Below, piece after piece: positions 1 to 33,104 of a stretch of DNA of 64,000 bases (position 1 is the stretch's first letter; every line of letters begins with the position of its first letter). The stretch lies in assembly GCA_010093815.1 (NCBI GenBank), contig ML996576.1, one strand, 5' to 3'. This DNA is from Pseudovirgaria hyperparasitica (lineage: Eukaryota). Under the pieces are notes generated by a model that worked only from the letters and a program-made list of their open reading frames with translations, was not told the origin of the DNA and ran no database searches. The position numbers and the translations under genes were made by a program.

Positions 1-3000
1 TTCTAGTCTTAGAGAAGGAGGGTAACTCTATAGCTAGAGACTAACTATATAGTAGAGTATGTTACTAGAAGCCGGAGTTAAGCCGGATTATTAGTTAAGG
101 GCTACCCTTAACTAATAATCCGTACTAAATAGAGTCCGGTAAACCTACTAACGAAGGGGATAGGCTATATTTTTATACGGATATAGAAATAAGTTATATA
201 GAGTTGCTTTCCGAGAAAATCTAGTCTAAAAATATTACTCGGTTATCGAGAAAAGATAACTTAGCTACCCTAGTTACGGCGGTAAGGTACGCTACCTTCG
301 TATATAAATAAGGCATAATAATAGAATAGCTTATAGTAGGCTCCACCGGCCTCTAAAGACGGTATTTATCTAGGGTATTAAAGGGATTTAGTATAGCTAC
401 TATATATAAAAGAAAGGGAGTTAAAGTACACCCTATAGATAACTCCGAAGCCTACTAAAAGGTTTCTAGGAATCTATTAGGGTATCTAGACTAGCGTGAA
501 CGAGTAATTATATAGTAGGTACTTCTTCTAGCCGTCTACCTAGGCCTTAACGCGTTTAATAGGCTAATAGAGCCTTAAAGGGTAACTATCCCGCTAGGAA
601 CACGTCTAACGCCTCTATATATAAGTTAGCTAAAGATTAGAATAGAGCTACGTCCCACGGAACTTAAGTTACTATATATAATCTTATTATATCGTGAGGA
701 AGTACTAGTATAGGAATTCTTATACCTTAGTAAATTTAATAAAGAGGTAGCACCTCCGTAGAAGATCCAAACGGTAGAACATAAGGTATAGTAGACTAAG
801 AACTTTAATATTCCTAGAGCCCTTTATAGGAAGGTACTTATAATTCTAAAAGAGCGTCTTAATAGTAGAAGGCTCGAGCCCTATAGTAGTCCTTATTAAA
901 ACACCTATTTTCTCATAGAAAAGAAGAAGGAAGCTAATAAGAAACGAGATTATAGGTTAATTAATTCGGCGATAGAAATTAACCGAGTTACTATTCGTGA
1001 TGCGGCCACGCCGCTCTCATGTAAAGAGTTCTCGGAGTACTTTACGGGGATAGCCGTCTTAACGTTTACTAACTTCTTCTTAGAATATAATTAGATTCTA
1101 TTAGTAGAGTATTACCGAGACTTAACGGGGTTTATAACGCCCCTAGGATTACTATACGGGATAATATTACCTTAAGGGGCCACTAATTTAGTAGCTTAGT
1201 TCGTTAGGATTATATTAACTATTATATAAGAATATATCCCGGAGAGGGCTCTACTATTCCTAGATAACTTAGATATTAAAGGACCTATAACGAAATATAA
1301 CTCTAAGGAGGCCCTACCTAGAATTCGTAGGTATATCCTAGAATATTTAATTAACGTAGATAAGGTTCTCGCGGATATAGAGCGCGCCGGATACGCCCTA
1401 AGTAGTAAGAAGACTTAGTAGTATATTAAAGCCGCTAACGTTATAGGATATATCTACGATATTAAAGGGAGGCGACCGAGTAATAAAAAGGTTACTACTA
1501 TTAGGGACTAGAAACCCTATAAAAACACGATAAATATGCGAGCCTTCCTTAGCGTTTATATATATTTCTAGATATAGATCCCCGGGTAGACTATTATCGC
1601 ATCGCCGCTATTAATACTATTAAAGAATAAATCGGCCTAGTAGTAGATAGCTAAGGAGTAGACCTTAATAGACGCGCTAAAGATAGCTCTAACTACTACT
1701 CCTGTACTAATAACGTTATAGTACGGGATAGATACGGGAGATATAATTCTAGTAGTAGACTCTAGTAACGTTAGGTAGGGAGCTATATTAATATAGGAGA
1801 ACGAGGATTATAAACGTTAGCCATTACGGTATAATAGAGGAATATAGTTAAAAGCTAAGAGAAACTATAATACCGTGAAGCTAGAGTGCCGAGCCCTCCT
1901 CTACGCGTTATAGAAGTTCTAGTAATACCTCTATAGCACGTACTTTATTATAGAAATAGACACGAATACTCTAGTCGCTTAAATTAACCATACTATAACT
2001 AACTTACTAGGGGCGCTCGTTACTAGATGGCTCGCGTGGATTTAGCTATAGAACTTTATAGTTAGGCACGTACCTAGAAAGCGTAATATAGTCGCTAACG
2101 GTATCTTATAGATATACGAAGGAGAAGAACTACTAGACATCTCTATCTTTAACCTAGACGAGTTCATAGATATAGCTCTATATATAGACGTGCTAGAGAT
2201 ATTATTAATTAAGCCCGTTAGCGGGAGGGATTATACGATAGAGATACTCGACTATACCGCCATTAAGTCTCCCTTAATAGATGAATATAGTAATAAATAG
2301 TAGAGGATTATAAAGTACCTTACTACACTCGAGAGGCTAACCGACCTAACCGACCGAGTATATAAGGCCTTTATAACCGACTATCTAAAGTTCCTTATAT
2401 ATAACTAAATACTCTAGCGGAGAGGAGATAGATATCGCTAATATACACGAGTAATTAAGGATCCGAATACTAGGGCGTATATAATTACCGCTACTTATAA
2501 TGAGATAGATTATAGAGGTAGTAAAGGGACCCTCGGAAGGATTAAGGATAAGTATTAGTAGATAGGTATATATAGAGACGTGCGATAGCACGTAAAAACC
2601 TATAATAAATATTAATAACGAAGTAAACTCCTCGGAGGTCTTAATAAAGGGCTCCACTATATTATAACGCCTATTCTTTAGTAAAGAATATACTTAGACG
2701 TAACGACGCTACTACCTTCTATAGAGTATAGTAAAGTAGTATCTATATAAGAATAGCTAAGCGGATAGACTAAGGCGGAGGCATATACGGCGGCTACGTC
2801 TATAGTCATCGTAAAGTTCCTCTTTAAGAACGTAATCTATAGATACGGAATTATTTCTAAAATCATCTATAATAGTAGTAGAGAAAATATAGGTACTATA
2901 GAGGAGCTCCTCCGACTCTATAGAATTTATTAGAAGGTTATATCTATATATAATCCCTAAGTAAATAGAATTATCGAGAGAAGTTTTATACTACTTACTA

Positions 3001-3755
3001 ATACTCTCGCGAAGATAACTAATAGCGGATTTAAGAACTAGCCCGGCTACCTCTATACGGTCGTCTAGATAGATAGAATAATAACACGTACTAGTATAGG
3101 GTATAGTACCGTATACCTCGTGCTTAGCTATAAACTAATTATATCTATCGAAGTTAAATTCGAGTCGCTCCGAATACTCCCTTAGGATAAGATATAATTA
3201 ATATCTAACTTACTTACTCTTCGAGCTAGATAACTTAAGAGAAGATCCGAGAATCTTAAGGAGGCCTATATCTACGCGACACGAACGCGTAAGGAATTAA
3301 GAGAGGTATAGAATAACGACTATTACCTTTATTAAGAGTCGTTACTAGTTAATATAATTATCCTCCTATACGACTCGTAGTGATAGAAGAATATAGAGCG
3401 GAAGCTAAGGTAGTATTAGAGGGGGCTATATAGAATCTAGTCCGTGTTTAATTATACTTATAAGCTCGCGGAGCTTAATAGAGCCATACTTAGAGGGACG
3501 TTTCCTAGCCATAGGTTAAAGAAATATTTTATAAGAAATATAAGTAATAAGAGTTACGACGAGCCCTCGCGACCACTAATCGGAAGAATTACCGAGGAAA
3601 ATAAGGAGAGTAGTAATAAGGAAAACTATTATAAATAACTTACGGAACACCTCGACGACGCCATATAAACCCGGGTGGAAGTAGTAATTCCTACTCCGTA
3701 AGACTTTAATAGAGAAGAATATTTACGTTTCCCTAGAATCGATATCTCCTTCTAG
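1..3755 (+). pseudogene. Gypsy A pol remnant (RT-RNase H-integrase)
   Basis: RT core cta ttc cta gat aac tta gat att aaa gga cct at ~1254 = (P)FLDDLGIKGP after de-RIP (minus copy keeps ggc atc); RNase H VDSS (~1755), KLECRALL (~1880) and HVPGKRNVVADG (~2067); integrase core ~2690-3150. End approximate. Confidence 0.9.
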
Positions 3756-3807
3756 GGGATAGAAGTTTTTTTAAGGAGGGAAGGGATGCTTATAAAAGTA
3801 GTCTTAT

Positions 3808-3880
3808 GATAATGAACTCCATTATCGAAAAAGGACGATGAACTCTATTATTAAAAGAGGATAATAAACCCTATTATTAC
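3808..3880 (+). repeat. ~26-bp degenerate tandem repeat (3 units) downstream of Gypsy A pol
   Basis: gataatgaactccattatcgaaaaag / gacgatgaactctattattaaaagag / gataataaaccctattattac; copy 2 (~20857-20903) has one unit fewer. Confidence 0.7.
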
Positions 3881-4111
3881 TATAAAATAATAAAACTTAT
3901 TATTAAAGTAAGTAATGCTCGAAAGAAGACATAATGGCGTTTACGCGAATTCTACCCACTATATATTAAAGCCGGTCGTGTAATCGAAGCCTATCTATCG
4001 AAGGCCTATTTTATTACTATAGAACGGGCCCTATTAGGAACTAATAAGGAAGAAAAGAAGGAGGAGGTATAGGAGAAAAAGATACTTATAGGAAGTCTTA
4101 TAAGGATAAGA

Positions 4112-4214
4112 ATATACCCGGTATCTATTTATTTATAGATTCCGCTATATACCCGGTAGATATATTTATTCATAGATTTCCTATATACCTAGTATATATT
4201 TATTTATAGATTCG
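4112..4214 (+). repeat. ~35-bp degenerate tandem repeat (3 units) upstream of the Gypsy A extra ORF
   Basis: atatacccggta...tatttattyatagatt repeated three times; mirrored at ~20522-20623. Confidence 0.75.
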
Positions 4215-4434
4215 ATACGTATACGGGCCTATAGCTATTAGTAAGAATCATTTATAAAAATTACTATATACCCGGTATTCGAGGAGGTATAAAAAGAGAA
4301 CTTAAGATAGTATATAACTCTTCCCTCTTACACCTCTCTATACCTTCTTAATTAATAAAACCTCCTCCTCTACTTCCGCCTCGCTTAACTACCTCTCCTT
4401 AAAATATAACTCGCTAATAGAACCAATAATAATA

Positions 4435-7362
4435 ATAGCCCTACTGAAAAAGAAAACGCCTACCCGTAAAGAGTTATAAGATTATTAAGTACTAATAAGA
4501 TAGACGCGGTTCTAGTTAAGAGTCGTAAGTACTAAAGTAGGGCTATCGACGGCTATCGTAGTATTAAGGCTATCTACTACTTCGTATAGATAGGCTATAG
4601 AAGCTATAGAAGTAAATAAGTCTACTATTAACTAAATTATCGCTATCTAGGACCCGTAAGAGCGATAGAACTATATTCTAGACACGTTTAATAATCTCCT
4701 TTATATTACTAGCCTTATAGAATAGCTCTTAAGTAGTATAGTTAACCTCTTCTAGGAAGTAGAAGCCGTAATAGGGTATAGTAAGGTAAAGATTAACTCC
4801 TCTATTCCGAAAGAAGTCCACGAGATAATTCGTTATAGAAGAGATACTAACTCCCGCATCCTAAAAGCTAAAAATATAATCCTATAAAACTAGCGAAAAG
4901 ACCTCTCTAATAATAACGGCTAGTTACTCTAATCCGCTCTCGGATAGCTCTAGTAAATATAGAACTTTATAGAAAAGCTAGTAGCGCTCTTATAAATATA
5001 GACATAGGCGAGAGCGAGGAACTAGTTAAATATATCCCTATAGTCCCGAATCGGCTAGGGATAGAAGGGAAGGGGAATTAAGGTATATCTTTAGAGCTCT
5101 AATATTAATACCGCCCTAGCTAGCGATAGTAACGAGGACGGTCTATCTCTCTAGTAACTCTCGAACTACCCTAGCCGATAAAATAAACTAACATTCCATA
5201 ATAAGACGGGACTTATTATCCCCGCTAGTTAATAGTTATAGATAAGTAGAATAGTTTATAGGCCCGTTAAATACTATCTATAAATTAAAGAGATAAGTGC
5301 ATCGCCTCCGCCTTAGACCTTACTATCGCTAAAACTAGCGTAGGTAACGTCTACGGTGAAGTCCCCTCCACGAAGCACGCCTTCTAGTTTAGTAGTATAT
5401 TATCTCTTCGAAGCTAGTCGTCCGTTTAAAGTAAGTATTCCTTCTACTACTACTAGTATACGTCTCTTACCGGGCTATATAAGAACCTCTTTAGTACCCG
5501 TCACGGCCACGCCGATAAAACCTACTTACGGATATACCTTATCTACTAGCCCTTAGTAATTACTAGGGGCGCCTATACGATAATCCCCGGTTATTCTTAG
5601 TTTATACCCTAAGATAATAGCATCGGTTAAGGAAGAGAATAAGCCTAAGAAGTATTAATACGCGCCTTTAGTAACGAAGACTTTTAAGGTAGCTATATTA
5701 TTAAAGAAGAATTTCACGAGTATTAAGGGAATGGCCCTACTAGTACACTAGAAAGCGTAAATAGGTAATATGGCTATTCCGTATAAAGTCTACTATAAGT
5801 ATTACTAAGACGTGGCTAGAAAGAATAATATACTTATTAGCGTGTCCTACTTAAACCTAGTAGCGAGACTTAAAATAGTATATAAGTTTAGAGATAACGT
5901 AGAGGCCCTTAAAGTTTATAAGGACCGCTATACCTAGTTCGCGAAGTACACGCGGCCACCTTATCCGATAGAGGCATTAGGTATCTATTATTACTAGGCC
6001 CTAGAGACCCTAAAGTAAGTTATTAATATTAAAACCATCCTTACTAGTATCGTATTTATAATTTAGAAGGAGGATAGTAGAATAGATAGATAACTCTTTA
6101 ACGAGTGGGAACGTACCGGAAGTGTTAATATTAAAGGGCTCTTCGAGCCACTTAAAAAGACGACCTCTATACTTAATAAGAGTATCCTAGAACTCGCGAG
6201 GGATGAATTTAATATATATAAGTACTACTAGCGTATATTTAATAAGAAATTAAACTACGGCTGGCTACGAACTATATACCACTCCTATATCTAATAGTTT
6301 ATTAGGTAATGCCTACTTTACTAGCTTACCTATATCGCTCTTCGGCCCGATCTTAACTACTATCTAATCTCGTACCTATACTATGCGAAGTCCTAGGATA
6401 GGGGCGATAAGACGGGTTTTAAGTATCTCGATAACGCCATTAATCGAATCCTCGATCCTAGCGATAGACACGGGTTTAATATAATCTAGGGGAGTATTAG
6501 TCTCGACGACGAACGAAGTAATAACTACACTATAATTATTCCCCGCTCCTATAAGTTCTTAAATAAATAGTAGTTAAAGGCTAAGCTCCGCGAGGGGGTT
6601 AATCGAAACGGTATAATCACGGCTATTAATGATAAGATCTATAATACGGACGATAAGAAACGATTTAGTCCCTTCGTCCTAGTCCCCTACTAGTCTCTTA
6701 AAGTATATATCTCTAGCCTACTAATAATATATAGTGCCTAGGGTCCCGTAAAGGGTGGAAGACGTATAATACTTCCATGGTATATCGCGATTAGCCCTAA
6801 TTACATGATAATAGAAGTATCTAAAATAAGTATATAGGAATAACTCGTAGTAGCTTATAGGAATTTAACTCCGGGACCCACGTCTCCGTTAGGATTTTCT
6901 AATAAATATAGTATGATTCCTTTTGCCTTTCTAGCCGTAGTTTAACTTCTAAGTTTTAACGCCGTTAGTAACGTATTAGTTAGCTATAAAAGATAGAATA
7001 GCTAGAAGGTAAAAGAAGAGGTAGCTATGTAGCTTAATATAAGTCCTTAATAACTTAAAGCTAAGGTAGACGCCTGGTTTAAGGAGGGCTCGAGGGTATT
7101 TATAGAGACCTTTAAGAAAATGGTAAGGTAGAAAAGGCTAGTCTATAGGGATAGGTCGTTCTAGAAGGAATTTAACGAGGCGCGCGCCGCTAAGCGGCTA
7201 ATTAATTTTAAGAAATTCGAGCCTAATACGGGCCTAGATAACATTAAAGAGAACTTCTATAAATAGGAGAGGCCTAACAAACTATCCGACAAGGAGGAAT
7301 CTAACCTCTCTAAGATAAGCGACACGATTCTTTAGGAGCTGGCTCGCGACCTTAAGTACTAA
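4435..7362 (+). pseudogene. Gypsy A extra ORF (~975 codons) with 2OG-Fe(II) dioxygenase (PhyH-like) domain, RIP-inactivated
   Basis: Single frame (+1), same length (2928 nt) in both copies; stops are TAA/TAG, as expected from RIP. De-RIP motifs: ALRPD..LISYPYYAK, FK(H)LD at 6418-6432, IQGSISLDDE at ~6484-6513, (H)GAQGPVKGGRRIILPWY at 6730-6783. Start (ATA for ATG) and stop are inferred. Confidence 0.75.
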
Positions 7363-7566
7363 GATTAGGCGCCTAAAAACCTACCTAATTATTAGTTAAG
7401 GGCTGCCCTTAACTAATAATCCGGGCTAAGGTTTACCCGCGCCGAGAGGTTTACTAGGGGCGCATTTTATTTATATTAAGGTCTTTCTTTTAGGCGTTCT
7501 TTACACGGTTTCTTACACGGTTACTATACTACTAAGGGTAGTAGTTCTATAGGCCGGGGAGGTATA

Positions 7567-7934
7567 TGTGGAAGGCCGCTCCTATAGCCCTATATGTATA
7601 TATCCCTGGCTCGATTATATGGCTTTATTATATATTTAAGGAGGGCGTTTTCCTTGGTTATTCTACTCGGCGCTTCCCCTATTACTAATATTCGACTATT
7701 TAACCTTTCCTTACGTTCATAGGCCTCTATAGGTATTAATTATTAGGCTTAGCTATTAAAGAATTAATTAAGAGTATTATATAGACCCGTCCTATTATAA
7801 AAGAGAACTAATAAGAAGTCGTACGTTCAAAGAGAACTTATAATACCTAGGAGAGATACTTGTGAGTTCGTCGCGACTACTATACTAGGAATACAGCCAT
7901 TTACAAAAGGGATATACGTAACGATGGCTTACCA
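7567..7934 (+). repeat. 3' LTR of Gypsy A copy 1
   Basis: Starts TGTGGAAGG right after the purine tract ggccggggaggtata; homologous to 16797-17168 and 27840-28211; the 3' terminus is imperfect (..cttacca versus ..ctcatcaca). Confidence 0.88.
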
Positions 7935-10900
7935 TACTATCGCCGAACTTTAGGAATATATCGCGAATTAGGCTTGAGAGATTTAAACCCTTAAAGAATA
8001 GGTAGAATACGCGAAACTCCTCGTAAAGAGACGAGAACTTAAGAAGTCTCTTAAAGAACTACGCCGAACGATAGTAGGTGGACGACTTTCTATACTAATT
8101 TAGGCGGAATTAGTTTACCTACTATTAGAGTTATGATAATCCACCGTATACCCGGCCGCTTCGTTACCGATTTACCCTACTTCTTCCCTAGATATACTAA
8201 AACCTAAAGATCTAACTATATTTATAGGGAAGAACTAAAAGGAGTAGAAAGACTAGAAGAGAGACTACGAAAAGTACTTCCTCGATAACCCTCTACTCTT
8301 TTCTACTAAAGTATAATATATTTCGTTCGGAGAACGATACCTAGACTTATAATTCCACGATTAATAGAATAGATAGAAGGAAGTATAGCTACTATCTACG
8401 ATAACCTAGAAATATTTAGCTATATTTATACTAAACACCCTTGGAACGGATAGAGAACGTGAAAGAAAGGCACTATCTAAGTTAAGAAGCGTGGCATAAC
8501 GACCGAACTAGACACCTACTTAACTACTATAATACCTCTAAAACCTATAGAATAATATCCCTATACTATAGGAAAATATTCGTATATTCTAGTTTCGCGA
8601 AGTACTACTTCCGTTAATCCGCGAAAGACTAGGAATAGTATTATTAAGTTTTAACTATCTACACGAATTAGAGGAGAAAGCTAATAAATACTACCGCATT
8701 CTTAAGGAACGCGGCTCTCTAGGTAAAACCGACGAACCCTATACGGGTTAGAAACGAGGTTAATCGAATACGTTTAATTAAGAGTAATCTTACCGCGATT
8801 AGCGCTAGAAGAGCGTAAATCGGGGTAGAAACGCGTTAAGAGGATACCAAAATAATTAAGGCGGTACTTCTTAACGCGGAAAAGGATAAGGCATAGGCTT
8901 AAATATAATATCTATTATAAAATAGTAGAATCATAGCGCACTTCGTTACTATAAGTATAGAGAAATAGAATATATTTCGCCTAACTATAAGAATCCGAAA
9001 AAAGAATAGGCTAGTACACGAGACCTAACCGCGTCCTTAGCTAAATTATATATACTTAGAAGGAGCCGTAGCGTCTTCCGGCGAGTAAAGACCTAATATT
9101 ACTAAAAGTATCGTTATCTATAGTAAATAGTAATAAAACTATATAGGCCCTCGTGGATACTAGTATAGAAGATAACTATATTTTATTAATTCTTATAAAG
9201 GAGTATAGATTATCGTATAATCTTAGTAAAGTTAGCCAAACTATCGTAGTTAATAGATATAAAGTTAGAACTTTAGGTAAAGCTATAATGAATTACGAAG
9301 TTCATGACTCGAAGATAATAAAATAGTAGATATCTAATAAATTTATTATAGCTAATATTAGCTAATAGAATATAATTCTAGGGATGCCTTAGCTTAGATA
9401 CCTAAACCCTATTCTTAATTTTTAGAAGGAGATATTAACGTTCTAACGATACCGTGGTAAATTATACTAGTAAGTTATAACTATTAGTAAGGAGGCATAG
9501 AACCTCACCGTACGGACCCGATTATTACTAATCTATCTTATATTCTTATTAATTATTAATAAAGATAAGGACGATAGTAATAATCGGGGCGAAGACACGC
9601 TACCCGACGTATATTCGTAGTATATAGATGTGTTTTTAGTAGGAGATACGTTACTTCTCCCTAATCACGGGCTATATAAGCTAAAGATCGAGCTCGAAGA
9701 GGGAGTAGACGTCTCTTATAGCCTACTTTACCTACTTTTAAGACTAGAACTTAAAGTTCTTTATAAATATATTAAAGAATACCTCGAAAGAGGCTAGATA
9801 CGTTATAGTATATTATTAGCTAGCGTATCTATTCTCTTCGTAAAGAAGAAAGACGGAAGTTTACATCTATATATCGACTATTAGGTACTAAATACGGTAA
9901 CTAAGAAGAATCGTTATCTATTACCGCTAGTTAGTAAATCTTTAGACTAATTAATAAAGATAAAGTACTTTATAAAGCTAGATTTATAAGATATATATTA
10001 CTAGCTTTAAATTCGTTATAGAGATAAGTAGAAAACCGCATTTCGGACTAGATATAGTTATTTTAAGTATACTATTATACTATTCGGGCTAATAAATACG
10101 CTAGGAGCGTTTTAAGGATATATTAATACTATACTTATAGGATTACTTAACGTGATTTATATAGTTTATCTCGATAATATACTAATTTACTCCGATAGTA
10201 TATAGAATTATAAAGAATACGTGAAATCGGTGCTAAATCGTCTAAGGTAGTATAAACTCTACGTAAAATTATCTAAATGTGAGTTTTACTAATAAGAAGT
10301 TGGGTTTCTCGGCTTTATTATAATATATAGCGGCCCAAAAATAGAGCCGGAGCGTGTAAAGACCATTATAGAATGGCTAGAACCTACTACTATACGTTAA
10401 ATTAGAATATTTATAGGTTTCGTAAACTATTATCATAAATTCATTATAGGCTTCTTACGAATTATGGCGCCGCTTAATAAACTTATAGAGAATGGCGGTA
10501 AAATCCCTATAGATAGGTAAGTATAGCGTAAAGCTAAGTCGGTTAAGATATAGTTAACGCCGGAAGCACGAGATACGTTCCGATCGTTAAAGAATTACTT
10601 TATAACTACGCCGATTCTTAGGTATTTTAATCCCGAGAAGTATATTTAGGTTAAAACTAATATGTTAGAATTCGTAATTACTAGAATTATTAGTTAACCG
10701 TATAAAGATATGAAAGATAAGGTATAATAGTACCCGGTCGCTTTCTTTTCCTATAAAATAGCGGATATAGAGACGCGTTATAATATATATAACTAGAAAC
10801 TACTTATAATTATTAAGAGTTTTAAGTAATAGCGATATTATTTAGAAGGCTCTATATATTAGATCGAATTATTATTAGATTACGCAAATCTACGTTACTT

Positions 10901-11882
10901 TATATTAACTAAGGTCCTTAATTACTAATAAGTATATTAGGCTAAGTAGATATTAATATTTAACTTTAAAATCTTATATAAAGCTAGAAGAGAGAATAAA
11001 GCTAATCCTCTATNNNNNNNNNNAAAGACTTAATTAAATCTACCTAGAATTCTAATATATTAGTAAAGAAAGTTATAAGTATAAAAGGAAGCGCTATAGA
11101 TCCGCCGTAGTTATTAAGGTAGAAACGATAATTAGACGCGATCTACTTCTAAGGCCGACTCTATATACTAGAAGACGGCTTACAAATTAATATTTTAAGG
11201 GAATAGCACGATTATATATTAGTAGAGTACTTTAGCGTTATAAGGACGGTTAATTTAATCTAAAGGATGTACGACTGGCCGGGTCTTTATAAATATATAA
11301 AAGACTATATAAAAACGTATAACGTTTACCAGTATACGAAAGTATATAGACACTTACTATATAGTAAATTAAGGCTATTACCTATACTAAAGGAGGTATA
11401 GAAGGAATTATTAATAGATTTTATTATAGATCTACCCCTAAGTAAGTATTCTAGGTATATTTATAATAGTTTACTTATAGTTCTAGATAGATTTATAAAG
11501 ATATTATACTATATCTCTATAAGGAAGACGATCTAAGTACCGGATCTTATAGATATACTACTCCGTGACGTAGTCCGGCTCTATAGTATACTAAATAATA
11601 TAGTTTCGGATAGAGGTCCGTAGATAACGTCTAAATTTTAGAAGGATTTCTACTATACGCTAGGAATTAAGTGGAAACTTAGTACTACGTTCCATCTATA
11701 AATAGATAGATAGACGGAGTAGTAGAATTAGATAGTCGAGGTGTATTTATATATATATTATAACTATAAGTAGAATAACTAGGTAAGGTTAGTCTATGTC
11801 GCGGAATTTGTGTATAATAATAGCCGATATACGTTAACCCACGTAAGTCCGTTCGAAGTAAACTTCGGTTAGAACTATAATA
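7935..11882 (+). mobile_element. Chromoviral Ty3/Gypsy family B, gag-protease-RT-RNase H-integrase (left segment), RIP-inactivated
   Basis: Gag zinc knuckle de-RIPs to CYKCGEMGHISPDC (~8947-8988); gag stop ~9009 after an A-rich run, with pol in the -1 frame; protease ALVDTG (~9147); RT VYLDDILIYS (~10164); RNase H; integrase running into SPFE at ~11847; continues at 28610. Confidence 0.92.
11014..11023. other. Assembly gap (10 N)
   Basis: Run of n within Gypsy B pol between RNase H and the integrase zinc finger; true gap size unknown. Confidence 0.99.
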
Positions 11883-16796: not shown

Positions 16797-17168
16797 TGTG
16801 ATAAGCTATCGCCACGTATGTCCCTTTTTATAAATGGCTATATTCTTAGTATAGTAGTCGCGACGAACTTATAAGTATCTCTCCTAGGTATTATGAGTTC
16901 TCTTTGAACGCACGACTTCTTATTAGTTCTCTTTTACGATAGGACGGGTCTATATAATACTCTTAATTAATTTATTAATAGCTAAGCCTAATAATTAATA
17001 CCCATAGAGGCCCATGAACGTAAGGAAAGGTCGAATTATCGAATATTAGTGATGGGGGAAGCGTATGGAGTAGAATGACCGAGGAAAACGCCCTCCTTAA
17101 ATATATAATAAGCCATATAATCGAGCTAGGGATATATATATATAGGGCTGTAGGAACGGCCTTCTATA
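16797..17168 (-). repeat. 3' LTR of Gypsy A copy 2
   Basis: Direct repeat of 27840-28211, adjacent to the PPT. Confidence 0.93.
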
Positions 17169-17372
17169 TATACCTCCCCGGCCTATAGAACTACTACCCT
17201 TAGTAGTATAGTAACCGTATAAGAAACCGTGTGAAGAACGCCTAAAAGAAAGACCTTAATATAAATAAAATACGCCCCTAGTAAACCCCTCGGCGCGGGT
17301 AAACCTTAGCCCGGATTATTAGTTAAGGGTAGCCCTTAACTAATAATTAGGCAGGTTTTTAGGCGCCTAATC

Positions 17373-20300
17373 TTAGTACTCGAGGTCACGAGCCAGCTTC
17401 TAAAGAATCGTATCACTTATCTTAGAGAGGTTAGATTCCTCCTTATCGGATAGTTCGTTAGGCCTCTCCTATCTATAGAAGTTCTCTTTAACGTTATCTA
17501 GGCCCGCGTCGGGCTCGAATTTCTTAAAATTAATTAGCCGCTTAGCGGCGCGCGCCTCGTTAAATTCCTTCTAGAACGACCTATCCCTATAGACTAGCCT
17601 TTCCTACCTTACTATTTTCTTAAAGGTCTCTACGAATACCCTCGAGCCCTCCTTAAACCAGGCGTCTACCTTAGCTTTAAGTTATTAAGGACTTGCGTTA
17701 AGCCACGTAGCTACCTCTTCTTTTACCTTCTAGCTATTCTATCTTTTACGGCCGACTAATACGTTACTAATAGCGTTAAAACTCGGGAGTTAAACTACGG
17801 CTAGGAAGGTAAAAGGAATCGCGCTATATTTATTAGAAAATCCCGACGGAGACGTAGGTCCTAGAGTTAAATTCCTGTGAGCTGCTCCGAGTTATTCCTA
17901 TATACCTATTTTAGGTACTTCTATTATTATATGATTAGGGCTAATCGCGATATACCATAGAAGTATTATACGTCTTCCACCCTTTACGGGACCCTAGGCG
18001 CCGTATATTATTAGTGGGCTAGAGATATATACTTTAAGGGACTAGTAGGGGACCGGGACGAAGGGACTAAATCGTTTCCTATCGTCCGTATTATAGATCT
18101 TATCGTTAATAGCCGTAATTATACCATTTCGATTAACCCCCTCGCGGAGCTTAGCCTTCAACTACCATTCATTTAAGAACTTATAGGAGCGGGGAACGAT
18201 TATAGTATAGTCGTCACTTCGTTCGTCGTCGAGACTAATACTCCCCTAGATTATATTAAACCTATATCTATTACTAGAATCGAGGATTCGATTAATGGCG
18301 TTATCGAGATACTTAAAACCCGTCTTATCGCCCCTATCCTAGAACTTCGCATAGTACGGGTACGAGATTAGATAGTAGTTAAGATCAGGCCGAAGAGCGA
18401 TATAGGTAAGCTAGTAAAGTAGGCATTACCTAATAAACTATTAGATATAGGAGTGGTATATAGTTCGTAGCCAGCCGTAGTTCGATTTCTTATTAAACAT
18501 ACGCTAGTGGTACTTATATATATTAAATTCATCCCTTATAAGTTCTAGGATACTCTTATTAAGTATAGAGGTCGTCTTTTTAAGTGGCTCGAAGAGCCCT
18601 TTAATATTAATACTTCCGGTACGTTCCTACTCGTCGAAGAGTTATCTACCTATTCTACCGTCCTCCTTCTAAATTATAAATACGATACTAGTAAGGATAG
18701 TTTTAATATTAATAACTTGCTTCGGGGTCTCTAGGGCCTAGTAATGATAGATATCTAATGCCTCTATCGGATAAGGTGGCCGCGCGTACTTCGTGAACTA
18801 GGTATAGCGGTCCTTATAAACTTTAAGGGCCCCTACGTTATCTCTAAACTTATATACTATTTTAAGTCTCGCTACTAGGTTTAAGTGGAACACGCTAACG
18901 AGTATATTATTCTTTCTAGCCACGTCTTGGTAATGCTTATAGTAGACTTTATACGGAATAGCCATATTACCTATCTACGCTTTCTAGCGCACTAGTAGGG
19001 CCATTCCCTTAATGCTCGTGAAATTCTTCTTTAATAATGTAGCTACCTTAAAAGTCTTCGTCACTAAAGGCGCGTATCAATACTTCTTAGGCTCGTCCTC
19101 TTCCTTGACTAATACTATCGTCTTAGGGTACGAACTAAGAATAACCAGGGATTGCCGTATAGGCGCCCCTAGTAATTACTAAGGGCCGGTAGATAAGGTA
19201 CGCCCATAAGTGGGTTTTATCGGCATAGCCGTAATAGGTACTAAAGACGTTCTTATATGGCCCGGTAAGGGACGTTTACTAGTAGTAGTAGGAGGAATAC
19301 TTACTTCGAACGGACGACTAGCTTCGAAGAGACGACATACTACTAAACTAGGAGATATACTTCGTAGAGGGGACTTTACCGTAGGCGTTACCTACGCTAG
19401 TTTTAGCGACGGTAAGGTCTAAGGCGGAGGCGATGCACTTATCTCTTTGATTTATAGGTAGTATTCGACGGGCCTATAAACTATTCTACTTATCCATAAC
19501 TATTAACTAGCGGGGATAATAAGTCCCGTCTTATTATAGAACGTTAGTTTATTTTATTAGCTAGGGTAGTTCGAGAGTTACTAGAGAGATAGGCCGTCCT
19601 CGTTACTATCGCTAGCTAGAGCGGCATCGATATTAGAGCTCTAAAGATATGCCTTAATTTCTCTTCTCTTCTATCCCTGGCCGATTCGGGACTATAGGGA
19701 TACGTTTAACTAGTTCCTTGCTCTCGCCCATGTTCGCACTCGTGAGAGCGCTACTAGCTTTTCTATAAAGTTCTATGTTTACTAGAGCTATCCGAGGGCG
19801 GATTAGAGTAACTAGCTATTATTATTAGGGAGGTCTTTTCGCTAGTTTTATAGGATTACATTTTAAGCTTTTAGGATGCGGGAGTTAGTGTCTCTTCCAC
19901 GACGAATTATCTCGTGGACTTCTTTCGGAATAGAGGAGTTAATCTTTGCCTTACTATACCCTATTACGGCTCCTGCTTCCTAGAAGAGGTCGACTATACT
20001 ACTTAAGAGCTATTCTACGAGGCTGGTAATGTAAAGGAGATTATTAAACGTATCTAGAATGTAGTCCTATCGCTCTTACGGGTCCTAGATAGCGATAATT
20101 TAGTTGATGGTAGACTTATTTATTTCCGTAGCTTCTATAGCCTATCCGTATAGAGTAGTAGATGGCCTTAATACCACGATAGTCGTCGATGGCCCTACTT
20201 TAGCACTTATGACTCTTAACTAGGACCGCGTCTATCTTATTAGTACTTAATAATCTTATAACTCTTTATAGGTAGGCGTTTTCTTCTTCAGCGGGGCTAT
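17373..20300 (-). pseudogene. Gypsy A extra ORF with 2OG-Fe(II) dioxygenase domain, copy 2
   Basis: Reverse complement of 4435-7362; independently retains codons such as tac ccg tac tat (YPYY) and tac ggc gcc ((H)GA). Confidence 0.75.
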
Positions 20301-20955
20301 TATTATTATTAGTTCTATTGGTAAGTTATATTCTAAGGAGAGGTAGTTTAAGCGAGGCGGAAGTAGAGGAGGAGGTTTTATTAATTAAGGAGGTATAGAG
20401 AGGTATAAGAGGGAAGAGTTATATACTATCTTAAGTTCTCTTTTTATGCCTCCTCGAATGCCGGGTATATAGTGATTTTTATAAATAATCCTTACTAACG
20501 GCCGTAGGCCCGTATACGTGTCGAATCTATAAATAAATATATACTAGGTATATAGGAAATCTATGAATAAATATGTCTACTAGGTATATAGCGGAATCTA
20601 TGAATAAATAGATACCGGGTATATTCTTATCCCCATAAGACTTCCTATAAGTATCTTTTTCTCTTATACCTCCTCCTTCTTTTCTTCCTTATTAGTTCCT
20701 AACGGGGCCCGTTCTATAGTAACGAAATAGGCCTTTAATGGGTAGGCTTCGATTACACGACCGGTTTCAATGTGTAGTAGGTAGAATTTCGCGTAAACGC
20801 CATTATGTCTTCTTTCGAGCATTACTTACTTTAATAATAGGTTTTATTATTTTATAGTAATGATAGGGTTTATCATCCTCTTTCGATGATAGAGTTCATC
20901 GTTATAAGACTACTTTTATAAGCATCCCTTCCCTTCTTAAAAAAACTTCTATCCC

Positions 20956-23900
20956 CTAGAAGGAGATATCGATTCTAGGGAAACGTAAATATTCCTCTCT
21001 ATTAAAGTCTTACGGAGTAGGAATTACTACTTCTACCCGGGTTCGTGTGGCGTCGTCGAGGTATTCCGTAAGTTATTTATAATAGTTTTCCTTATTGCTA
21101 CTCTCCTTATTTTCCTTAGTAATTCTTCTAATTAGTGGTCGTAAGGGCTCGTCGTGACTCTTATTACTCGTATTTCTTATAAAATATTTCTTTAACCTAT
21201 GGCTAGGAAACGTCTCTCTAAGTATGGCTCTATTAAGCTCCGTAAGCTTATAAGTATAATTAAACACGGACTAGATTCTATATGGCCCCCTCTAATGCTA
21301 CCTTAGCTTTCGCCCTATATCCTTCTATTACTACGAGTCGTATAGGAGGATAATCGTGTCGACTAGTAACGACTCTTAACGAAGGTAATAGTCGTTATTC
21401 TATACCTCTCTTAATTCCTTACGCGTTCGTATCGCGTGGGTATAGGCCTCCTTAAGATCCTCGGATCTTCTCTTAAGTTATCTAGCTCGAAGAGCGAGTA
21501 AGTCGGACGTTAATCATACCTTATTCTAAGGGAGTATTTAGAGCGACTCGAATTCGACTTCGATAGATATGATTAGTTTATGGCTAAGTATAAGGTATAC
21601 GGTACTATACCCTATACTAGTACGTATCGTTATTCTATCTACCTAGATAACCGCATGGAGGTGGTCGGGCCAGTTCTTAAATCCGCTATTAGTTATCTTC
21701 GCGAGAGCATTAGCGAGTAGTATAAAACTTCTCTCGATAATCCTATTTACTCGGGGATTATACATAGACGTAACCTTCTAATAAATTCTATAGAGTCGGA
21801 GGAGCTCCTCTATAGCACCTATATTTTCTCTACTACTATTATAGGTGATTTTAGGAATAATTCCGTATCTATAGATCACGTTCTTAAAGAGGAACTTTAC
21901 GACGACTATGGACGTGGCCGCTATACATGCCTCCGCCTTAGTCTATCCGCTTAGCTATTCTCGTATAGATACTACTTTACTATACCCTATAGAAGGTGGT
22001 AGTGTCGTTACGTCTAAGTGCATTCTTTGCTAAAGAATAGGCGTTATGACGTAGTGGAGCCCTTTATTAAGACCTCTAAGGAGCTTACTTCGTTATTAAT
22101 ATTCGTTATAGGTTTTCACGTGCTATCGCACGTCTCTACGTATACCTACCTACTAATACTTATCCTTAATCCTTCCGAGGGTCCCTTCGCTACCTCTATA
22201 ATCTATCTTATTATAAGTGGTAGTAATTATACGCGCCCTAGTATTCGGATCCTTAATTACTCGTGTATATTAGCGATATCTATCTCCTCTCCGCTAGAGT
22301 ATTCGGTTACACACGAGGAACTTTAGGCAGTCGGTTATAAAGGCCTTATACGCTCGGTTGGTTAGGTTGGTTAGCCTCTTAAGTATAGTAAGATACTTCG
22401 TAATCCTCTACTATTTATCGCTATATTTATCTATTAAGGGAGACTTAATAGCGGTATAGTCGAGTATCCCTATTATGTAATCTCTCCCGCTAATAGGCTT
22501 AATTAACAATATCTCTAGCACGTCTATATATAGAGCTATATCCACGAACTCGTCTAGGTTAAAGGTAGGGACGTCTGGTGGTTCTTCTCCTTCGTGCATC
22601 CGTGAGATACCATCGGCGACTACGTTACGCTTCCTAGGTATATACCTAACTATAAAGTTCTATAGCTAAATCCACGCGAGCCACCTAGTAACGAGCGCCC
22701 CTAGTAAGTTAGTTATAGTACAGTTAATTTAAGCGACTAGAGTATTCGCGTCTATTTCTATAATAAAGTATATACTATAGAGGTATTACTAGAACTTCTA
22801 TAACGCGTGGAGGAGGGCTCGGTACTCTAGTTTCACGGTATCGTAGTTTCTCTTAGCTTTTAACTATATTCCTCTATTATACTACGATAGCTAACGTTTA
22901 TAATTCTCGTTCTCCTATATTAACGTAGCCCCCTACCTAACATTACTAGAGTCTACTACTAGGATTATATCTCCTATACCTGTCCCGTACCGTAACGTTA
23001 TTAGTGCGGGAGTAGTAGTTAGAGCTATCTTTAGCGCGTCCATCAAGGTCTACTTCTTAGCTATCTACTACTAGGCCGATTTATTCTTTAATAGTATAAA
23101 TAGTAGTAATACGATAATAGCGTACCCGGGGATCTATATCCGGAAATATATATAAACGCTAAGGAAGGCTCGCATATTCGTCGTGTTTTTATAGGGTTTC
23201 TAGTCCCTAATAGTAGTAACCTTTTTATTACTCGGTCGCCTCCCTTTAATACCGTAGACGTATCCCATAACGTTAGCGGCTTTAATATACTACTAAGTCT
23301 TCTTACTACTTAGGGCGTATCTAGCGCGCTCTATATCCGCGAGAATCTTATCCACGTTAATTAAATGTTCTAGGATATACCTATAAATTCTAGGTAGGGC
23401 CTCCTTAGAGTTATATTTCGTCGTAGGTCCTTTGATGCCTAAGTTATCTAGGAATAGTAGAGCCCTCTCTAGGATATGTTCTTATATAATAGTTAATATA
23501 ATTCTAACGAACTAAGCTACTAAATTAGTGGCCCCTTAAGGTAATATTATCCCGTATAGTAATCCTAGGGGCGTTATAAACCCCGTTAAGTCTCGGTAAT
23601 GCTCTACTAATGGAATCTAATTATATCCTAAGAAGAAGTCGGTAAACGTTAAGACGGCTATCCCTATAAAGTGCTCCGAGAATTCTTTATATAAGGGCGG
23701 CGTGGCCGCATCACGAATAGTAACTCGGTTGATTTCTATCGCCGAATTGATTAACCTATAATCTCGTTCCTTATTAGCTTCCTTCTTCTTTTCCACGAGA
23801 AAATAGACGTTTTAATAAGGACTACTATAGGGCTCGAGCCTTCTACTATTAAGACGCTCTTTTAGGATCGTGAGTACCTTTCTATAAAGGGCTCTAGAAA

Positions 23901-26900
23901 TATTAAAGTTCTTAGCCTACTATATCTTATATTCTACCGTTCGGATCTCCTACGGAGGTACCACCTCTTCATTAAATTTACTAAGGTATAAGAATTCCTA
24001 TACTAGTGCTTCCTCGCGATATAATAAGATTATATATAGTAACTTAAGTTCCGCGGGACGTAGCTCTATTCTAATCTTTAGCTAACTTATATATAGAGGT
24101 GTTAGACGTGTTTCTAGCGGGATAGTTACCCTTTAAGGCTCTATTAGCCTATTAAACGCGTTAAGGCCTAGGTAGACGGCTAGAAGAAGTACCTACCGTG
24201 CGATTACTCGTTCACGCTAGTCTAGATACCCTAATAGATTCCTAGGGACCTTTTAGTAGGCTTCGGAGTCATCCACGGGGTGTACTTTAACTCCCTTTCT
24301 TTTATATATAGTAGCTATACTAAATCCCTTTAATACCCCGGATGAATACCGTCTTTAGAGGCCGGTAGAGCCTACTATAAGCTATTCTATTATCGTGCCT
24401 TATTTATATACGAAGGTAGCGTACCTTACTACCGTAACTAGGGCGGCTAAGTTATCTTTTCTCGATAACTAAGTAATATTTTCAGGCCGGATTTTCTCGG
24501 AAAGCAACTCTATATAACTCATTTCTATATCCGTATAAAAATATATCCTATCCCCTTCGTTAGTGGGTTCACCGGACTCTATTTAGTATGAATTATTAGT
24601 TAAGGGTAGCCCTTAACTAATAATCCGGCTTAACTCCGGCTTCTAGCGATATACTCTACTATATAGTTAGTCTCTAGCCACGGAGTTACCCTCCTTCTCT
24701 AAGACTAGAATATACTCGTCCGGACTGGTTTTAAAGGTTATACGTTCTTATCTATATATAGAGTAGACTATTAAGAGTACTTACCCGGAGGCTAACCTCT
24801 ACACCGTAAGTAAGGCCTACCTAGCATATAGCTCCCCTAGGATAAGATTATAATTGAGTTCGCTATATACGAATATCGAAGTAGCCGTAATAATTTAACC
24901 TATATAGATAGGGTATTACTATACTATTCCTACGAATGGAGTGCTATACTAAGTAGCGCTAACTAAACTTAAGTTCTTTATATATAGTAGAAGCGAAGAT
25001 ATTACTAGCCTAAGACGCCTCGTAGTATCTAGTCGAATACTATTTACCTGCACGCCACTATCGAATAGTACTATACTAGTCGCCCTTTTAGGACTAACTT
25101 CCACGGGGTACCTCGGACACTCGGCTACTAGCCTTACTATCTCTTCCTTAAGCTAATTAATATCTTATTACGTAATAGCCGTCCCCGTGGTATAGAGGGG
25201 TGCTAATATATTAAGTTTATTTATCTTAGGAGCTATGGTATAGTCGTTTCTTTCTTTCTTCTCGGCTCTCTTCTCTTAAGCCTCGCGGACCTCTCTAGCT
25301 ATAAAGTCGGGGGCGCCCTTCTTGAACACCGCACGACGTAAGTTACCATTAAGGCTTAATAGTTCACTAATAGTAATATTCATGGTTGTCCCTAGAACGC
25401 GCACTAGCCATGCTTCGCTAGCTTCTATACTTAGCCGCTATCCCTTATATAGATAGTTATTAAGCTTAACGCCTTGGATACGTACCTTTTAACTAGGATT
25501 TAGGCTATCCCCTTTATCTATCTTATTCTTAGGCGCCGTTAGCTCTTATTTAGACGTTCCCTAGTCACTACTCTTCTCGCCGTCCTCCTATTCCTTAATA
25601 ATCCTTATATACTACCCTTCACGCATTCCGCGGAGATAGACGATCTTTCTTTCCTTAGTATAATTAGGTGTACTCTTCGTAATCCCCCTTCTAGATATTA
25701 TAAGTATAGCGGGCTCTTCTAGGGCTATCTCCTCGCGGATATATCTGTTACTAGCCACGTCGAAGCGTTCATGGAATTCTATATATCTATCTTTCTTACT
25801 CTCGGGCGACGTGACTTCTTCTTCTAAATTACTATCTACTAAGGCCTAGTAGAGACCCTTCGTAGGTTTTGCACTAATACTATATACTAGCACTCCCTAT
25901 GAAGCGTTAATATTTACTATAGACGTAGAAACCTTTACTCCCCCTCCGTACTAGCTTAGGCCATTTTAAACCGTTACTACGTAGTTCCGGATAGCTTATA
26001 GAGTAGCTTATGGCCCTACCGAGAAGGGTAGTAATAGGATTTCTTCTCCGTTCGCCCCGAAACGCCCTCGGAATACTCGTACCCTATTAATATTTAGTAA
26101 TCCATCTCTAATATATTCTACCATCTCCGGACATCTATATATTAGGTAATCTCCTCCGTACGTGATGCATACAATCGGTCTTCGAGGCCTATCCTAGGCT
26201 ATAACGCCTCCTTAGAAGTCTCGGGTAGAGACGTATTCTCTATTCTATATATAATTCTATGGATAAACTTACGTTAGTTCTATAGGCATGCCTCGTACTT
26301 AGGGGTGTATTAAAAGATTTAGCCTTCGCGCCTACTAGTTAATAATAGCCGAAAGTAGCTTAGGTTCGTACTTCTTAAGGGATAAGAATAAGGGATTAGA
26401 GATAAAGTAGGACTTTATCTTAATTAACGTGAGGTCTAGTTTACTAAATCTCTCTACTATCTCGTTAAACTTATCCGATCCTAGCGTAATATATACTTCG
26501 ACTAGAGAGGGGTGGCTAAATTTATTAGTTCTTCTTTCTTTATGTGACTACTCTTCTAAGCTAGTCTTCTTACTCCCTATCTTTGATTTATAGTATATGG
26601 CTATGGCTAGCTCTTATGCGGCTAAGTACTTATTAATACGAGCTAGTTCCTTAAGTACTCTAGCCTTTCGTGATACGAAGTCATAGATAATTACCTAGTC
26701 GTAACTATGTGCTTCTATCGTGAGTTAACATTTCTCTATAGCCCGAGCCTTAAGACTATTAGGTAGCCCTTCTAGGAAGAGCTCTATTCGCGAATACGAG
26801 CTTAGGCTTCCTTTAGCCATAAGTTTCTCCGTAATAACATGATACCGGGAGTAATATATAGGGAGAGAGTAGGATAGGTCTACTTTAACCATTTCCACGT

Positions 26901-27549
26901 ATTTTCGGATAAAGTGGATAGTGCCTTCCTCGAGGGCGGAGTTAAATAGAGAGAATTCCTTTAATAATTCTTCACGTAGTATAGCCTACTACTATTTCTA
27001 AAACCTATCTATTCCTTTAATAGTAGGACGGAGATAGTCCTCGTAGTATAACGGTAGGGAGGTTATCTTCTTATTAGGCGGAACTTTATAGTTTATATAT
27101 ATGTCCTCGTACTTCCGAAGGAAGGCTATAATGTTTATTCCTTTAAAGCGCTCGGGGGCTAGGGTAGGTAGAGATACTATTCTTCCTTATCGCGTAAATG
27201 CTACGAAGAAGTTAAGCATCTCTCTACGAGTTACTAGGTCGTTATTTTAAGCTCCTATCGCACTATTACTAGTAGTAGATATGCTAGTGGAGACGCTAGG
27301 GGTAAGGTTATTAGTTAAGGGATTACCTTAACTAAAGGTTAGCCTAATACGTCTACCTATAACACCTATCATCCCTTCTCTATGTTGATTAATCCCTTTA
27401 TAAGGTGAACTATTACTATCGTCTTCATCGATATAAGGTTCACGGTATCCTACTTATATTATTATCTTCGTATAAGGCGTTCCTAAAGTAGTATACTCGT
27501 GTAGCCGTGTTTATGAATAATAGCTATAGTAGTACTAAATAGGTTATAT
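20956..27549 (-). pseudogene. Gypsy A single gag-pol ORF (~2,200 codons)
   Basis: All checked motifs share one frame: gag ERFKG.N..AFLRKYED (~27105-27153), knuckle CITCGGDHL..RC (~26130-26169), protease LFDSG (~25054-25068), RT, RNase H, integrase. No chromodomain recognised. Ends approximate. Confidence 0.87.
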
Positions 27550-27810
27550 TTGTCGTTTTTGAACTCTTCTTTACTACTTCATCTGGCCCTATTTTATATC
27601 CTATTCCCCTAAGACATTTTCGAGTCGTGCTATTACCCATGTTAGCATACGCATGCTTTTTACGGCTACTTTTAAGAGGCTAGCCCCTAGCAACTCTAGA
27701 CTCCCTGTTTTCTAGACTCGTGGCTTCGATCTAGTAAGTCTAGACTACCTTATTAGGCACGCCATATACTTCCTCTAAGCTAGTTTCGGAGTCCTAATCT
27801 CCCCCTGTAA

Positions 27811-27835
27811 GTTCGTAGTCCGGGTACGACCTCTA
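27811..27835 (-). promoter_or_regulatory. Primer-binding site of Gypsy A, complementary to a tRNA-Gln-like 3' end
   Basis: 4 nt inside the 5' LTR the minus strand reads T(A/G)GAGGTCGTACCCGGA; the + strand gttcg..tccgggtacgacctc(t/c)a resembles the T-arm/acceptor 3' end of fungal tRNA-Gln plus CCA (from memory, not searched). Confidence 0.65.
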
Positions 27836-27839
27836 AAAT

Positions 27840-28211
27840 TATAATGAGCTATCGCCACGTATATCCCTTTTTATAAATAGCTATATTCTTAGTATAGTAG
27901 TCGCGACGAACTCACAAGTATCTCTTCTAGGTATTATGAGTTCTCTTTAAACGCACGACTTCTTATTAGTTCTCTTTTACGATAGGACAGGTCTATATAA
28001 TACTCTCAATCAATTCATTAATAGCTAAGCCTAATAATCAATACCTATAGAGGCCCATGAACGTAAGGAAAGGTTGAATTATCGAATATTAGTGATGGGG
28101 GAAGCGTGTGGAGCAGAATGACCGAGGAAAACGCCCTCCTTAAATATATAATGAGCCATGTAATCGAGCTAGGGACACATACATGTAGGGCTGTAGGAAC
28201 GGCCTTCTACA
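27840..28211 (-). repeat. 5' LTR of Gypsy A copy 2
   Basis: Direct repeat of 16797-17168; starts TGTAGAAGG on the minus strand; followed by the PBS. Confidence 0.93.
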
Positions 28212-28215
28212 ATAG

Positions 28216-28609
28216 GTATATAGTTACCCTCGGTAATATCGCTATATAGCCTTTTCTATTATACCGGTAGGGGTATATCCGGTATATACCGGGGTATATC
28301 GGTGCCTAAGGCCGCCATATTTATTAGTTAAGGGCTACCCTTAACTAATAAAAGGGGGTCGGCGTATTGGCGTTCTAGTAGCGTGGTCCGTGTCTCTATC
28401 TCCGTGAGGATTTTAAGAGGGTATATATATATCTTTATACGGCGATAACGTCTTGGTTTCGACGCTATACGTATATGCGTATAGTAGTAGTTGGTATACT
28501 CGGTATACTCTATCGATTAAGGTATGTATCTCGCTGTATTACCCCGAATGGACCAAGTTAGCCTCTTAGGGATCCTTATTCCTAATATTTTTAATATCTC
28601 TATAGAGAT
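28216..28609 (-). mobile_element. LINE 5' segment (5' UTR and ORF1 start)
   Basis: Lies between the Gypsy A TSD and the second copy of the 19-bp LINE TSD; contains the ORF1 ATG at 28318. Confidence 0.85.
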
Positions 28610-32795: not shown

Positions 32796-33104
32796 AATAA
32801 GGGGCCAAAAACTCAACAACATGTGCGTCTAAATTAGTCTGCTGAGTGGTGCAACGATTCACGGTGGCACTCGATACGTTGTGGAATGACCCCAAAGATC
32901 ATGCTTGTTGATGGCTGTGGTAAGCGGGACATATGAGTTGACGAACATGTGGAGTGTGTGCGTGAGGCATTGGCCCCAGGATCTGGGTTATATATATTGT
33001 GATCGGATGCATATATACTTATAGCATTCGCAGTCGTGCGAACCATCTTACTTATCCTCTCACTATGGTGCAACCCTAGGTCCTTCGTCAAATCATCAAC
33101 ATCC

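Follow-up and report, generated by a model that had tools for sequence, protein, structure and literature searches.

How does one short palindrome come to lie, with its sequence intact, at unrelated positions within two unrelated lineages of retroelement? The question is raised by a stretch of 64,000 nucleotides (nt) from contig ML996576.1 of Pseudovirgaria hyperparasitica (assembly GCA_010093815.1), referred to below as the window. In this window, the palindrome TTATTAGTTAAGGG-CTR-CCCTTAACTAATAA occurs as six exact copies and one variant, where none is expected by chance, and all of these lie inside either a Gypsy-type long terminal repeat (LTR) retrotransposon, here called Gypsy A, or a long interspersed nuclear element (LINE). 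Through an analysis of the flanks, codon phases, and host elements of these copies, we arrived at an explanation that we favor only tentatively, namely, that a self-contained mini-palindrome was inserted repeatedly before its hosts were mutated by repeat-induced point mutation (RIP), was kept only where it was harmless, and was then amplified passively.

A search with the pattern TTAGTTAAGGG-NNN-CCCTTAACTAA, allowing up to 2 mismatches, returned seven matches: exact ones starting at 91, 7392, 12116, 17319, 24596, and 28324, and one with a single mismatch at 27311. The same search in 100 dinucleotide-preserving shuffles gave a mean of 0.00 and a maximum of 0. The common core measures 14+3+14 = 31 bp, and pairing reaches 39 to 41 bp at some sites. 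Perfect arms of 18 nt are present at 84-122, of 16 nt at 7388-7420 (reading a 1-nt loop), and of 15 nt at each of 17315-17347, 24592-24624, and 28320-28352; the stretch at 12106-12150 has 21-nt arms at 90%, 16 nt of which are perfect. In the variant, the outer 10 nt of each arm are unchanged and five central bases differ. The window contains 88 short-spaced inverted repeats, and in the longest 25 of these, 100% complementary arms of at least 15 nt are confined to copies of the palindrome. When the 14-nt arm was sought in a RIP-tolerant form, it was found 13 times, as both arms of the six copies and the left arm of the variant; the window contains no solo arm, and no further occurrence was found anywhere else in it, a second Gypsy element and the gene-rich half included. 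The palindrome itself, its different extension at different sites (cgg..ccg, g..c, and t..a), and its absence from the other Gypsy element and the gene-rich half had all been put forward in an earlier reading of this DNA (the original prediction), and each is borne out by these searches or by alignment of the copies.

Because Gypsy A is present as two inverted copies, the six exact copies represent four independent sites. Self-comparison aligned positions 1-7941 with 24710-16792 in inverted orientation at 91.6% identity over 7946 columns, and a sensitive comparison of 1.2-kb pieces around the copies found extended homology only between 91 and 24596, between 7392 and 17319, and among the LTRs. 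The independent sites are designated A (91 and 24596), B (7392 and 17319), C (12116), and D (28324), with the variant as E (27311). Sites A, B, and E belong to Gypsy A and sites C and D to the LINE, in agreement with the three places in the former and two in the latter that had been proposed, a mapping that domain matches and frame analysis also support. The second Gypsy element is split by the 5.3-kb LINE, which is in turn split by Gypsy A; with this nesting resolved, every palindrome proves to be internal to Gypsy A or the LINE, and the second Gypsy element is without any. Neither descent nor convergence can account for 31 identical bp at unrelated positions in both an LTR element and a LINE; the sequence must have been copied in. 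That the motif was acquired repeatedly, and not inherited, had likewise been predicted, and the unrelated flanks, the nonhomologous sites, and the two classes of element all speak for it.

The shared unit ends sharply. Similarity between sites stops 14 to 19 bp from the palindrome center: the 14-nt arms are common to all four canonical sites, the 15th pair is A-T at three of these and T-A at the fourth, and sites A and B have in common four extra bases, CCGG, beyond the core. With 936 other RIPed windows as the empirical null, none of 28 flank pairs had a P value below 0.01 (the lowest were 0.014 to 0.025), so that the flanks are as unrelated as they had been said to be. A longer unit common to the sites was considered and rejected, since the flank pairs that are significant against simple shuffles are not so against other RIPed windows. 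A longer stem around the core was likewise ruled out; once the core hairpin was constrained, no significant pairing was gained from the flanks at any of seven loci (P values of 0.05 to 0.64). The hairpin itself is predicted to dominate the local RNA fold (z of −2.6 to −5.6). At all four canonical sites, a 25-bp core of the palindrome has TA on both sides, and this is the only flanking direct repeat that is consistent across sites.

What distinguishes the copies further, and is new here, is that those within or before main reading frames all lie in the phase that stays open before RIP. Sites E, A, and D all have the 33-bp palindrome starting on codon position 1 of the main frame, an arrangement with a chance of 1/27. 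We enumerated the eight pre-RIP forms that the palindrome could have had: this phase is free of stops in the four with CpA at the inner TpA and in no others, and both other phases carry stops in 3/4 of those four. Sites B and C are at the ends of the upstream open reading frames (ORFs), in a stop-bearing phase. Site A lies 150 amino acids (aa) past the DSG motif of the protease and 106 aa ahead of a conserved YKRKGVKV block, in a stretch that is not conserved among seven homologous polyproteins; the linker is unalignable, and the ends of the insert were not definable from distant polyprotein relatives. Site E lies 12 codons past a candidate start, M279, and 39 codons ahead of another candidate, M330. 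At site D, the endonuclease/reverse transcriptase (RT) frame reads through the palindrome, with 4 stops in the 112 codons after it and 3 in the 85 before. The original prediction had this copy abutting the ATG of ORF1, a position whose significance we could not uphold; that ATG opens a different frame from that of the endonuclease/RT, one with 10 stops in the next 100 codons. Site C lies 62 aa beyond the region aligned with an endonuclease-RT relative, whose own ORF ends ca. 43 aa beyond the aligned region. A 12-mer suspected near the LINE ORF ends, TATACCGGTATA, is absent from the window. With all three of these sites (3/3) in the only open phase and the other two sites at the ends of last ORFs, the pattern is that expected of a tolerance filter acting on active elements, and among the readings that had been offered for the motif (protein site, hairpin, or mobile unit), it would favor a tolerated insert. 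Genes of Rickettsia and of mitochondria show the same pattern of tolerance toward small palindromic inserts.

The uniformity of the copies needs to be seen against the state of the surrounding DNA. In the transposon half of the window, TpA/ApT is 1.66 and (CpA+TpG)/(ApC+GpT) is 0.23, compared with 0.70 and 1.22 in the gene half; the 2390 codons of the Gypsy A polyprotein frame include 125 stops, against 4 for Gln and 5 for Trp, and transitions make up 622 of the 633 differences between the two Gypsy A copies. The boundary between the two halves, at ca. 33000 to 34000, is a sharp one, with a RIP-saturated transposon block of 30 to 40% GC giving way to gene-rich DNA of ca. 50% GC and normal dinucleotide ratios. 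Within the palindromes, a single RIP-prone position out of 42 is still unmutated, in the CTG center at 7404. With RIP this near to saturation, uniform TpA across the copies is to be expected. Accordingly, the pre-RIP form that had been deduced for the palindrome stands at two positions only, the outer TpA not being among them: the in-frame TAA derives from CAA, since without a CpA in place of that TpA the frame would be closed, and the center was CTG, which the copy at 7404 retains.

Contigs from four public runs (X1 to X4) were placed on positions 11800-28700. Runs X1 and X2 represent a single sample, from which the assembly may derive, while X3 and X4 belong to a second study; the contigs placed numbered 44,611, 15,609, 14, and 5, respectively. 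The numbers for X1 and X2 indicate that the Gypsy A and LINE families are very abundant, and 958 of 990 variant places in X1 are transitions. Coverage of the LINE is as deep as that of the Gypsy element, whereas for Leptosphaeria maculans, which was considered as a possible source, ca. 7 kb of LINE sequence is all that PMC4210507 lists; an origin in that fungus is not supported. Because contigs from two independent studies contain the motif, the palindrome is not an assembly artifact. An assembly or adapter artifact was among the outcomes that the original prediction had named as its own undoing, and that objection falls away within the reach of these analyses, the more so in that both RIP-diverged copies of Gypsy A carry the motif. 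Three contigs from X3 and X4 cover the region of site C (12050-12168) with no palindrome-sized gap. The same two runs also contain GC-rich, apparently un-RIPed relatives of the LINE, in contigs of 4.0 to 4.4 kb that are ca. 80% alike and match at 12168, 16248, 16739, and 28374; the original sequence of the palindrome may be preserved in them.

In the explanation that we favor, the insert would have reached a minimum of four unrelated positions, or five if the variant is counted, and the two lineages of retroelement that took it up, Gypsy A and the LINE, are themselves unrelated. This would have happened while both lineages were still active and before RIP. Only copies at harmless places would have survived, three of them in or before translated sequence in a stop-free phase and two at the ends of last ORFs. 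The host elements would then have multiplied, carrying the insert passively to high copy number, and RIP would later have converted its CpA and TpG to TpA. As for mechanism, our preference would be a hairpin-forming mini-element that inserts at TA, a “nano-MITE” (after miniature inverted-repeat transposable elements, or MITEs) with a 25-bp core. The identical core, its sharp ends, the unrelated flanks, the codon phases, the nesting, and RIP are all observed; that the palindrome was inserted rather than selected for, and how, is something that we infer.

A number of observations weigh against this explanation. No empty sites of the palindrome were seen in the run contigs across 11800-28700, where all 11 indels listed are single letters, and among the 15 joints listed, of 25 in all, none starts or ends at a palindrome; nothing here points directly to mobility, and both families look fixed for the insert. 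No copies lie outside Gypsy A and the LINE in the ca. 8 kb of the second Gypsy element or in 31 kb of genes. The TA that borders the core is self-complementary and indistinguishable from palindrome sequence, and it may be no target duplication at all. At variant E, one of the two TA borders is missing and AGGTTA forms a 6-bp direct repeat instead, and whether this site is inside gag depends on which start is used, M279 or M330. We know of no cut-and-paste element as short as 25 to 41 bp. For two master lineages to have been hit four to five times, the insert would have had to be very active or targeted, and the CCGG common to sites A and B fits copying between sites better than fresh random insertion. 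Two further details concern AGGTTA. At 27305-27341, it flanks variant E as an exact repeat, which becomes 7 bp if the boundary is shifted. In run X1, G is found at 12112 in 213,198 of 310,894 of summed depth; with this base, AGGTTA would precede site C too.

One alternative, which we consider somewhat unlikely, is that the palindrome is a cis-acting hairpin, in RNA or DNA, that benefits the retroelements and that was passed between families and kept by selection; its possible roles include those of a dimerization or packaging signal, a translational pause site, and a protein-binding site. Retroviruses and LTR retroelements do possess cis-acting dimerization and packaging stem-loops, and the retroviral packaging hairpins lie between the 5′ LTR and gag, as variant E does. 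The predicted stem-loop would be stable in the transcript and dominates the local fold, pairing is perfect in every copy and is extended differently at each site (as the 15th pair illustrates), two copies are at the ends of last ORFs, and the motif appears fixed in both families, with no empty sites among the variants listed. However, LTR elements and LINEs replicate differently, with no cis signal known to be common to both, and the same palindrome occurs in the LINE and at three places in Gypsy A, two of which are translated or past the last ORF. The second Gypsy element manages without it, and pairing beyond the arms does not reach significance. Since the two arms are altered symmetrically by RIP, their pairing would be kept even without selection, and tolerance explains the codon-phase pattern equally well. 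Selection would still require a transfer mechanism for the identical sequence. A second alternative is that RT switched template onto an abundant small hairpin RNA and back again, writing the hairpin into new copies of any retroelement being copied at the time, which would agree with the restriction of the palindrome to retroelements within the window, with the want of any unambiguous target duplication, and with a paired length that varies from 14 to 19 bp between sites, as variable switch points would give. Each such event, however, needs two switches, and independent entry and exit predict unequal arms, whereas every site has symmetric arms. A donor RNA is not known, there were no Rfam matches in positions 1-34000, and the second Gypsy element has again escaped. 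We regard capture of this kind as improbable.

The geometry of the palindrome, with inverted arms of 11 to 14 nt around a short asymmetric spacer (CTG/CAG, or CWG), is also that of the core sites of site-specific recombinases, such as lox, FRT, and hix, and its copies fall between functional modules of Gypsy A; they might thus mark points at which modules were excised, inverted, or exchanged. Against this, Pfam scans of the frames examined revealed no recombinase domain, none of the 15 joints listed (of 25) links two palindromes, and the modules outside the palindromes are not common to Gypsy A and the LINE, all of which makes such a role very unlikely. Still further down the scale, and negligible within the reach of these analyses, is chance similarity or an artifact of assembly, adapter, or vector: the shuffles gave no match, the palindrome is present in both Gypsy A copies with RIP divergence all around it, contigs of two separate studies contain it, and scans of metagenome, prokaryote, and viral collections (7, 6, and 0 loci, respectively) turned up only hairpins that are alike in pattern alone. 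These scans used the RIP-tolerant pattern, and 5 of the 13 loci are one recurring locus. As relatives of the palindrome, the metagenome and prokaryote loci were rejected; they are bacterial-type hairpins that have nothing in common with it beyond the pattern. One metagenome contig (positions 1703-1727 of locus L004) has the same 19 central bases and a CTA loop within a longer, unrelated palindrome, probably by chance. A literature search that included the motif and its hypothetical pre-RIP forms found no description.

To our knowledge, no known kind of element matches this palindrome, although several share features with it. Like Tc1/mariner (Stowaway-like) MITEs, it has inverted ends with almost nothing between them, is noncoding, and sits inside other repeats; the whole unit consists of two perfectly inverted arms, and the TA borders of its 25-bp core at 4/4 canonical sites, though not at variant E, would recall MITEs that insert at TA, unless they simply belong to the palindrome. 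MITEs, however, range from ca. 50 to 800 bp, whereas the palindrome is 25 to 41 bp long, with only 3 bases between its arms and without an internal region; there were also no empty sites among those listed and no partner element with the same ends in the window. Also comparable are the mobile mini-hairpins, namely, the GC clusters of yeast and other fungal mitochondria, Rickettsia palindromic elements (RPEs), and bacterial repetitive extragenic palindromic (REP) sequences, which spread to unrelated sites and enter coding sequence in frame where the added peptide is tolerated. The palindrome resembles them in being very short, in occupying unrelated sites, and in its in-frame coding insertions. 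It differs in that its hosts are nuclear, RIP-mutated retrotransposons beside nuclear-type genes rather than organellar or bacterial DNA; we know of no nuclear eukaryotic counterpart of these hairpins, and the literature search found none. The 3′ hairpin of Helitrons was tried and discarded. Helitrons have this hairpin ca. 10 nt before a CTRR end that abuts T, with a common element body upstream, but CTAA occurs within 15 nt in just 2 of 8 canonical flanks, in neither case followed by T, and the flanks are unrelated.

A bolder, and doubtful, possibility is that the palindrome represents a nuclear eukaryotic “nano” mobile element, a counterpart of REP sequences, RPEs, and GC clusters that moves as a hairpin rather than by classical inverted-repeat cut-and-paste transposition and that colonizes the coding sequence of retrotransposons in frame. 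If it is mobile, it would fall far short of the minimum size generally assumed for transposable units of eukaryotes, and retrotransposons would themselves be colonized by still smaller parasites, subject to the same in-frame filter as in Rickettsia and mitochondria. If instead it is a common cis signal, no earlier case is known of an LTR element and a LINE making use of one and the same sequence element. On either reading, it provides a compact marker for dating and tracing two high-copy-number families before and after RIP.

The coordinates of the palindromes and of the elements that contain or surround them are as follows.

Table 1. Copies of the palindrome and their host elements in the window
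Feature	Position	Strand	Remarks
Site A, copy 1 (loop CTA)	84..122		In frame, in the protease-RT linker of Gypsy A
Site A, copy 2	24592..24624		Homologue of 84-122 in the inverted Gypsy A copy
Site B, copy 1 (center still CTG)	7388..7420		End of the Gypsy A extra ORF, before the 3′ LTR
Site B, copy 2	17315..17347		152 nt from core to 3′ LTR of Gypsy A copy 2
Site C, inside the LINE	12111..12145		At most ~60 nt from the expected ORF2 end, ~230 nt before the LINE 3′ end
Site D, inside the LINE	28320..28352		Starts 257 nt from the 5′ end of this LINE copy; endonuclease/RT phase
Variant E	27311..27335		Gypsy A gag leader or N terminus; polyprotein phase
Gypsy A copy 1	1..7936	+	Cut by the window start; 91.6% identical to copy 2
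Gypsy A copy 2	16797..28211	−	11,415 bp; ~370-bp LTRs; TG..CA ends; 4-bp duplication ATAG
LINE, 3′ part	11883..16796	−	Endonuclease, reverse transcriptase, site C, ATA/TAT repeat tail
LINE, 5′ part with site D	28212..28609	−	Continuation of 16796 across the Gypsy A insertion
LINE target-site duplication	11864..11882 and 28610-28628		Exact, 19 bp; left and right copies
Second Gypsy element, without palindrome	7942..11863, resumes after 28628	+	RT, RNase H, integrase zinc domain

The LINE matched the Pfam RT family RVT_1 with an E value of 8e-17; its endonuclease match is weak, below Pfam's cut-off. A relative of 1054 aa with endonuclease and RT domains could be aligned over 947 columns. We also considered whether sites C and D, which stand toward opposite ends of the LINE, might be its 31-bp target duplication. 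This was ruled out by the exact 19-bp duplication that lies further out and by contigs of the second study that join the left flank, the palindrome, and the 3′ region of the LINE. In the second Gypsy element, an integrase SH3 domain was found at ca. 28802-28978, and a run of ten N at 11014-11023 is an assembly gap.

Gypsy A has a single gag-protease-RT-RNase H-integrase frame followed by an extra ORF of ca. 700 aa. The long frame matches RNase H, and 11 relatives with RT, RNase H, and integrase domains were found. Self-comparison places the LTR, a 366-bp repeat, at 7567-7929, 16801-17166, and 27844-28209, and the empty site of copy 2 is represented by a contig of run X2 that joins 16792 directly to 28212. 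The extra ORF had no Pfam match; its frame, at 17344-20000 on the minus strand and 4700-7390 on the plus strand, lies between the integrase and site B and has a coding-like stop density of 3 to 7 per 100 codons. Adjoining site C, at 12148-12217, the coding 3′ end of the LINE contains short tandem repeats with periods of 11 and 21. On the element's own strand, CTATC follows the 3′ LTR of both Gypsy A copies (7937-7941 and 16792-16796), although the two copies sit in different host elements; this common sequence may reflect an integration-site preference.

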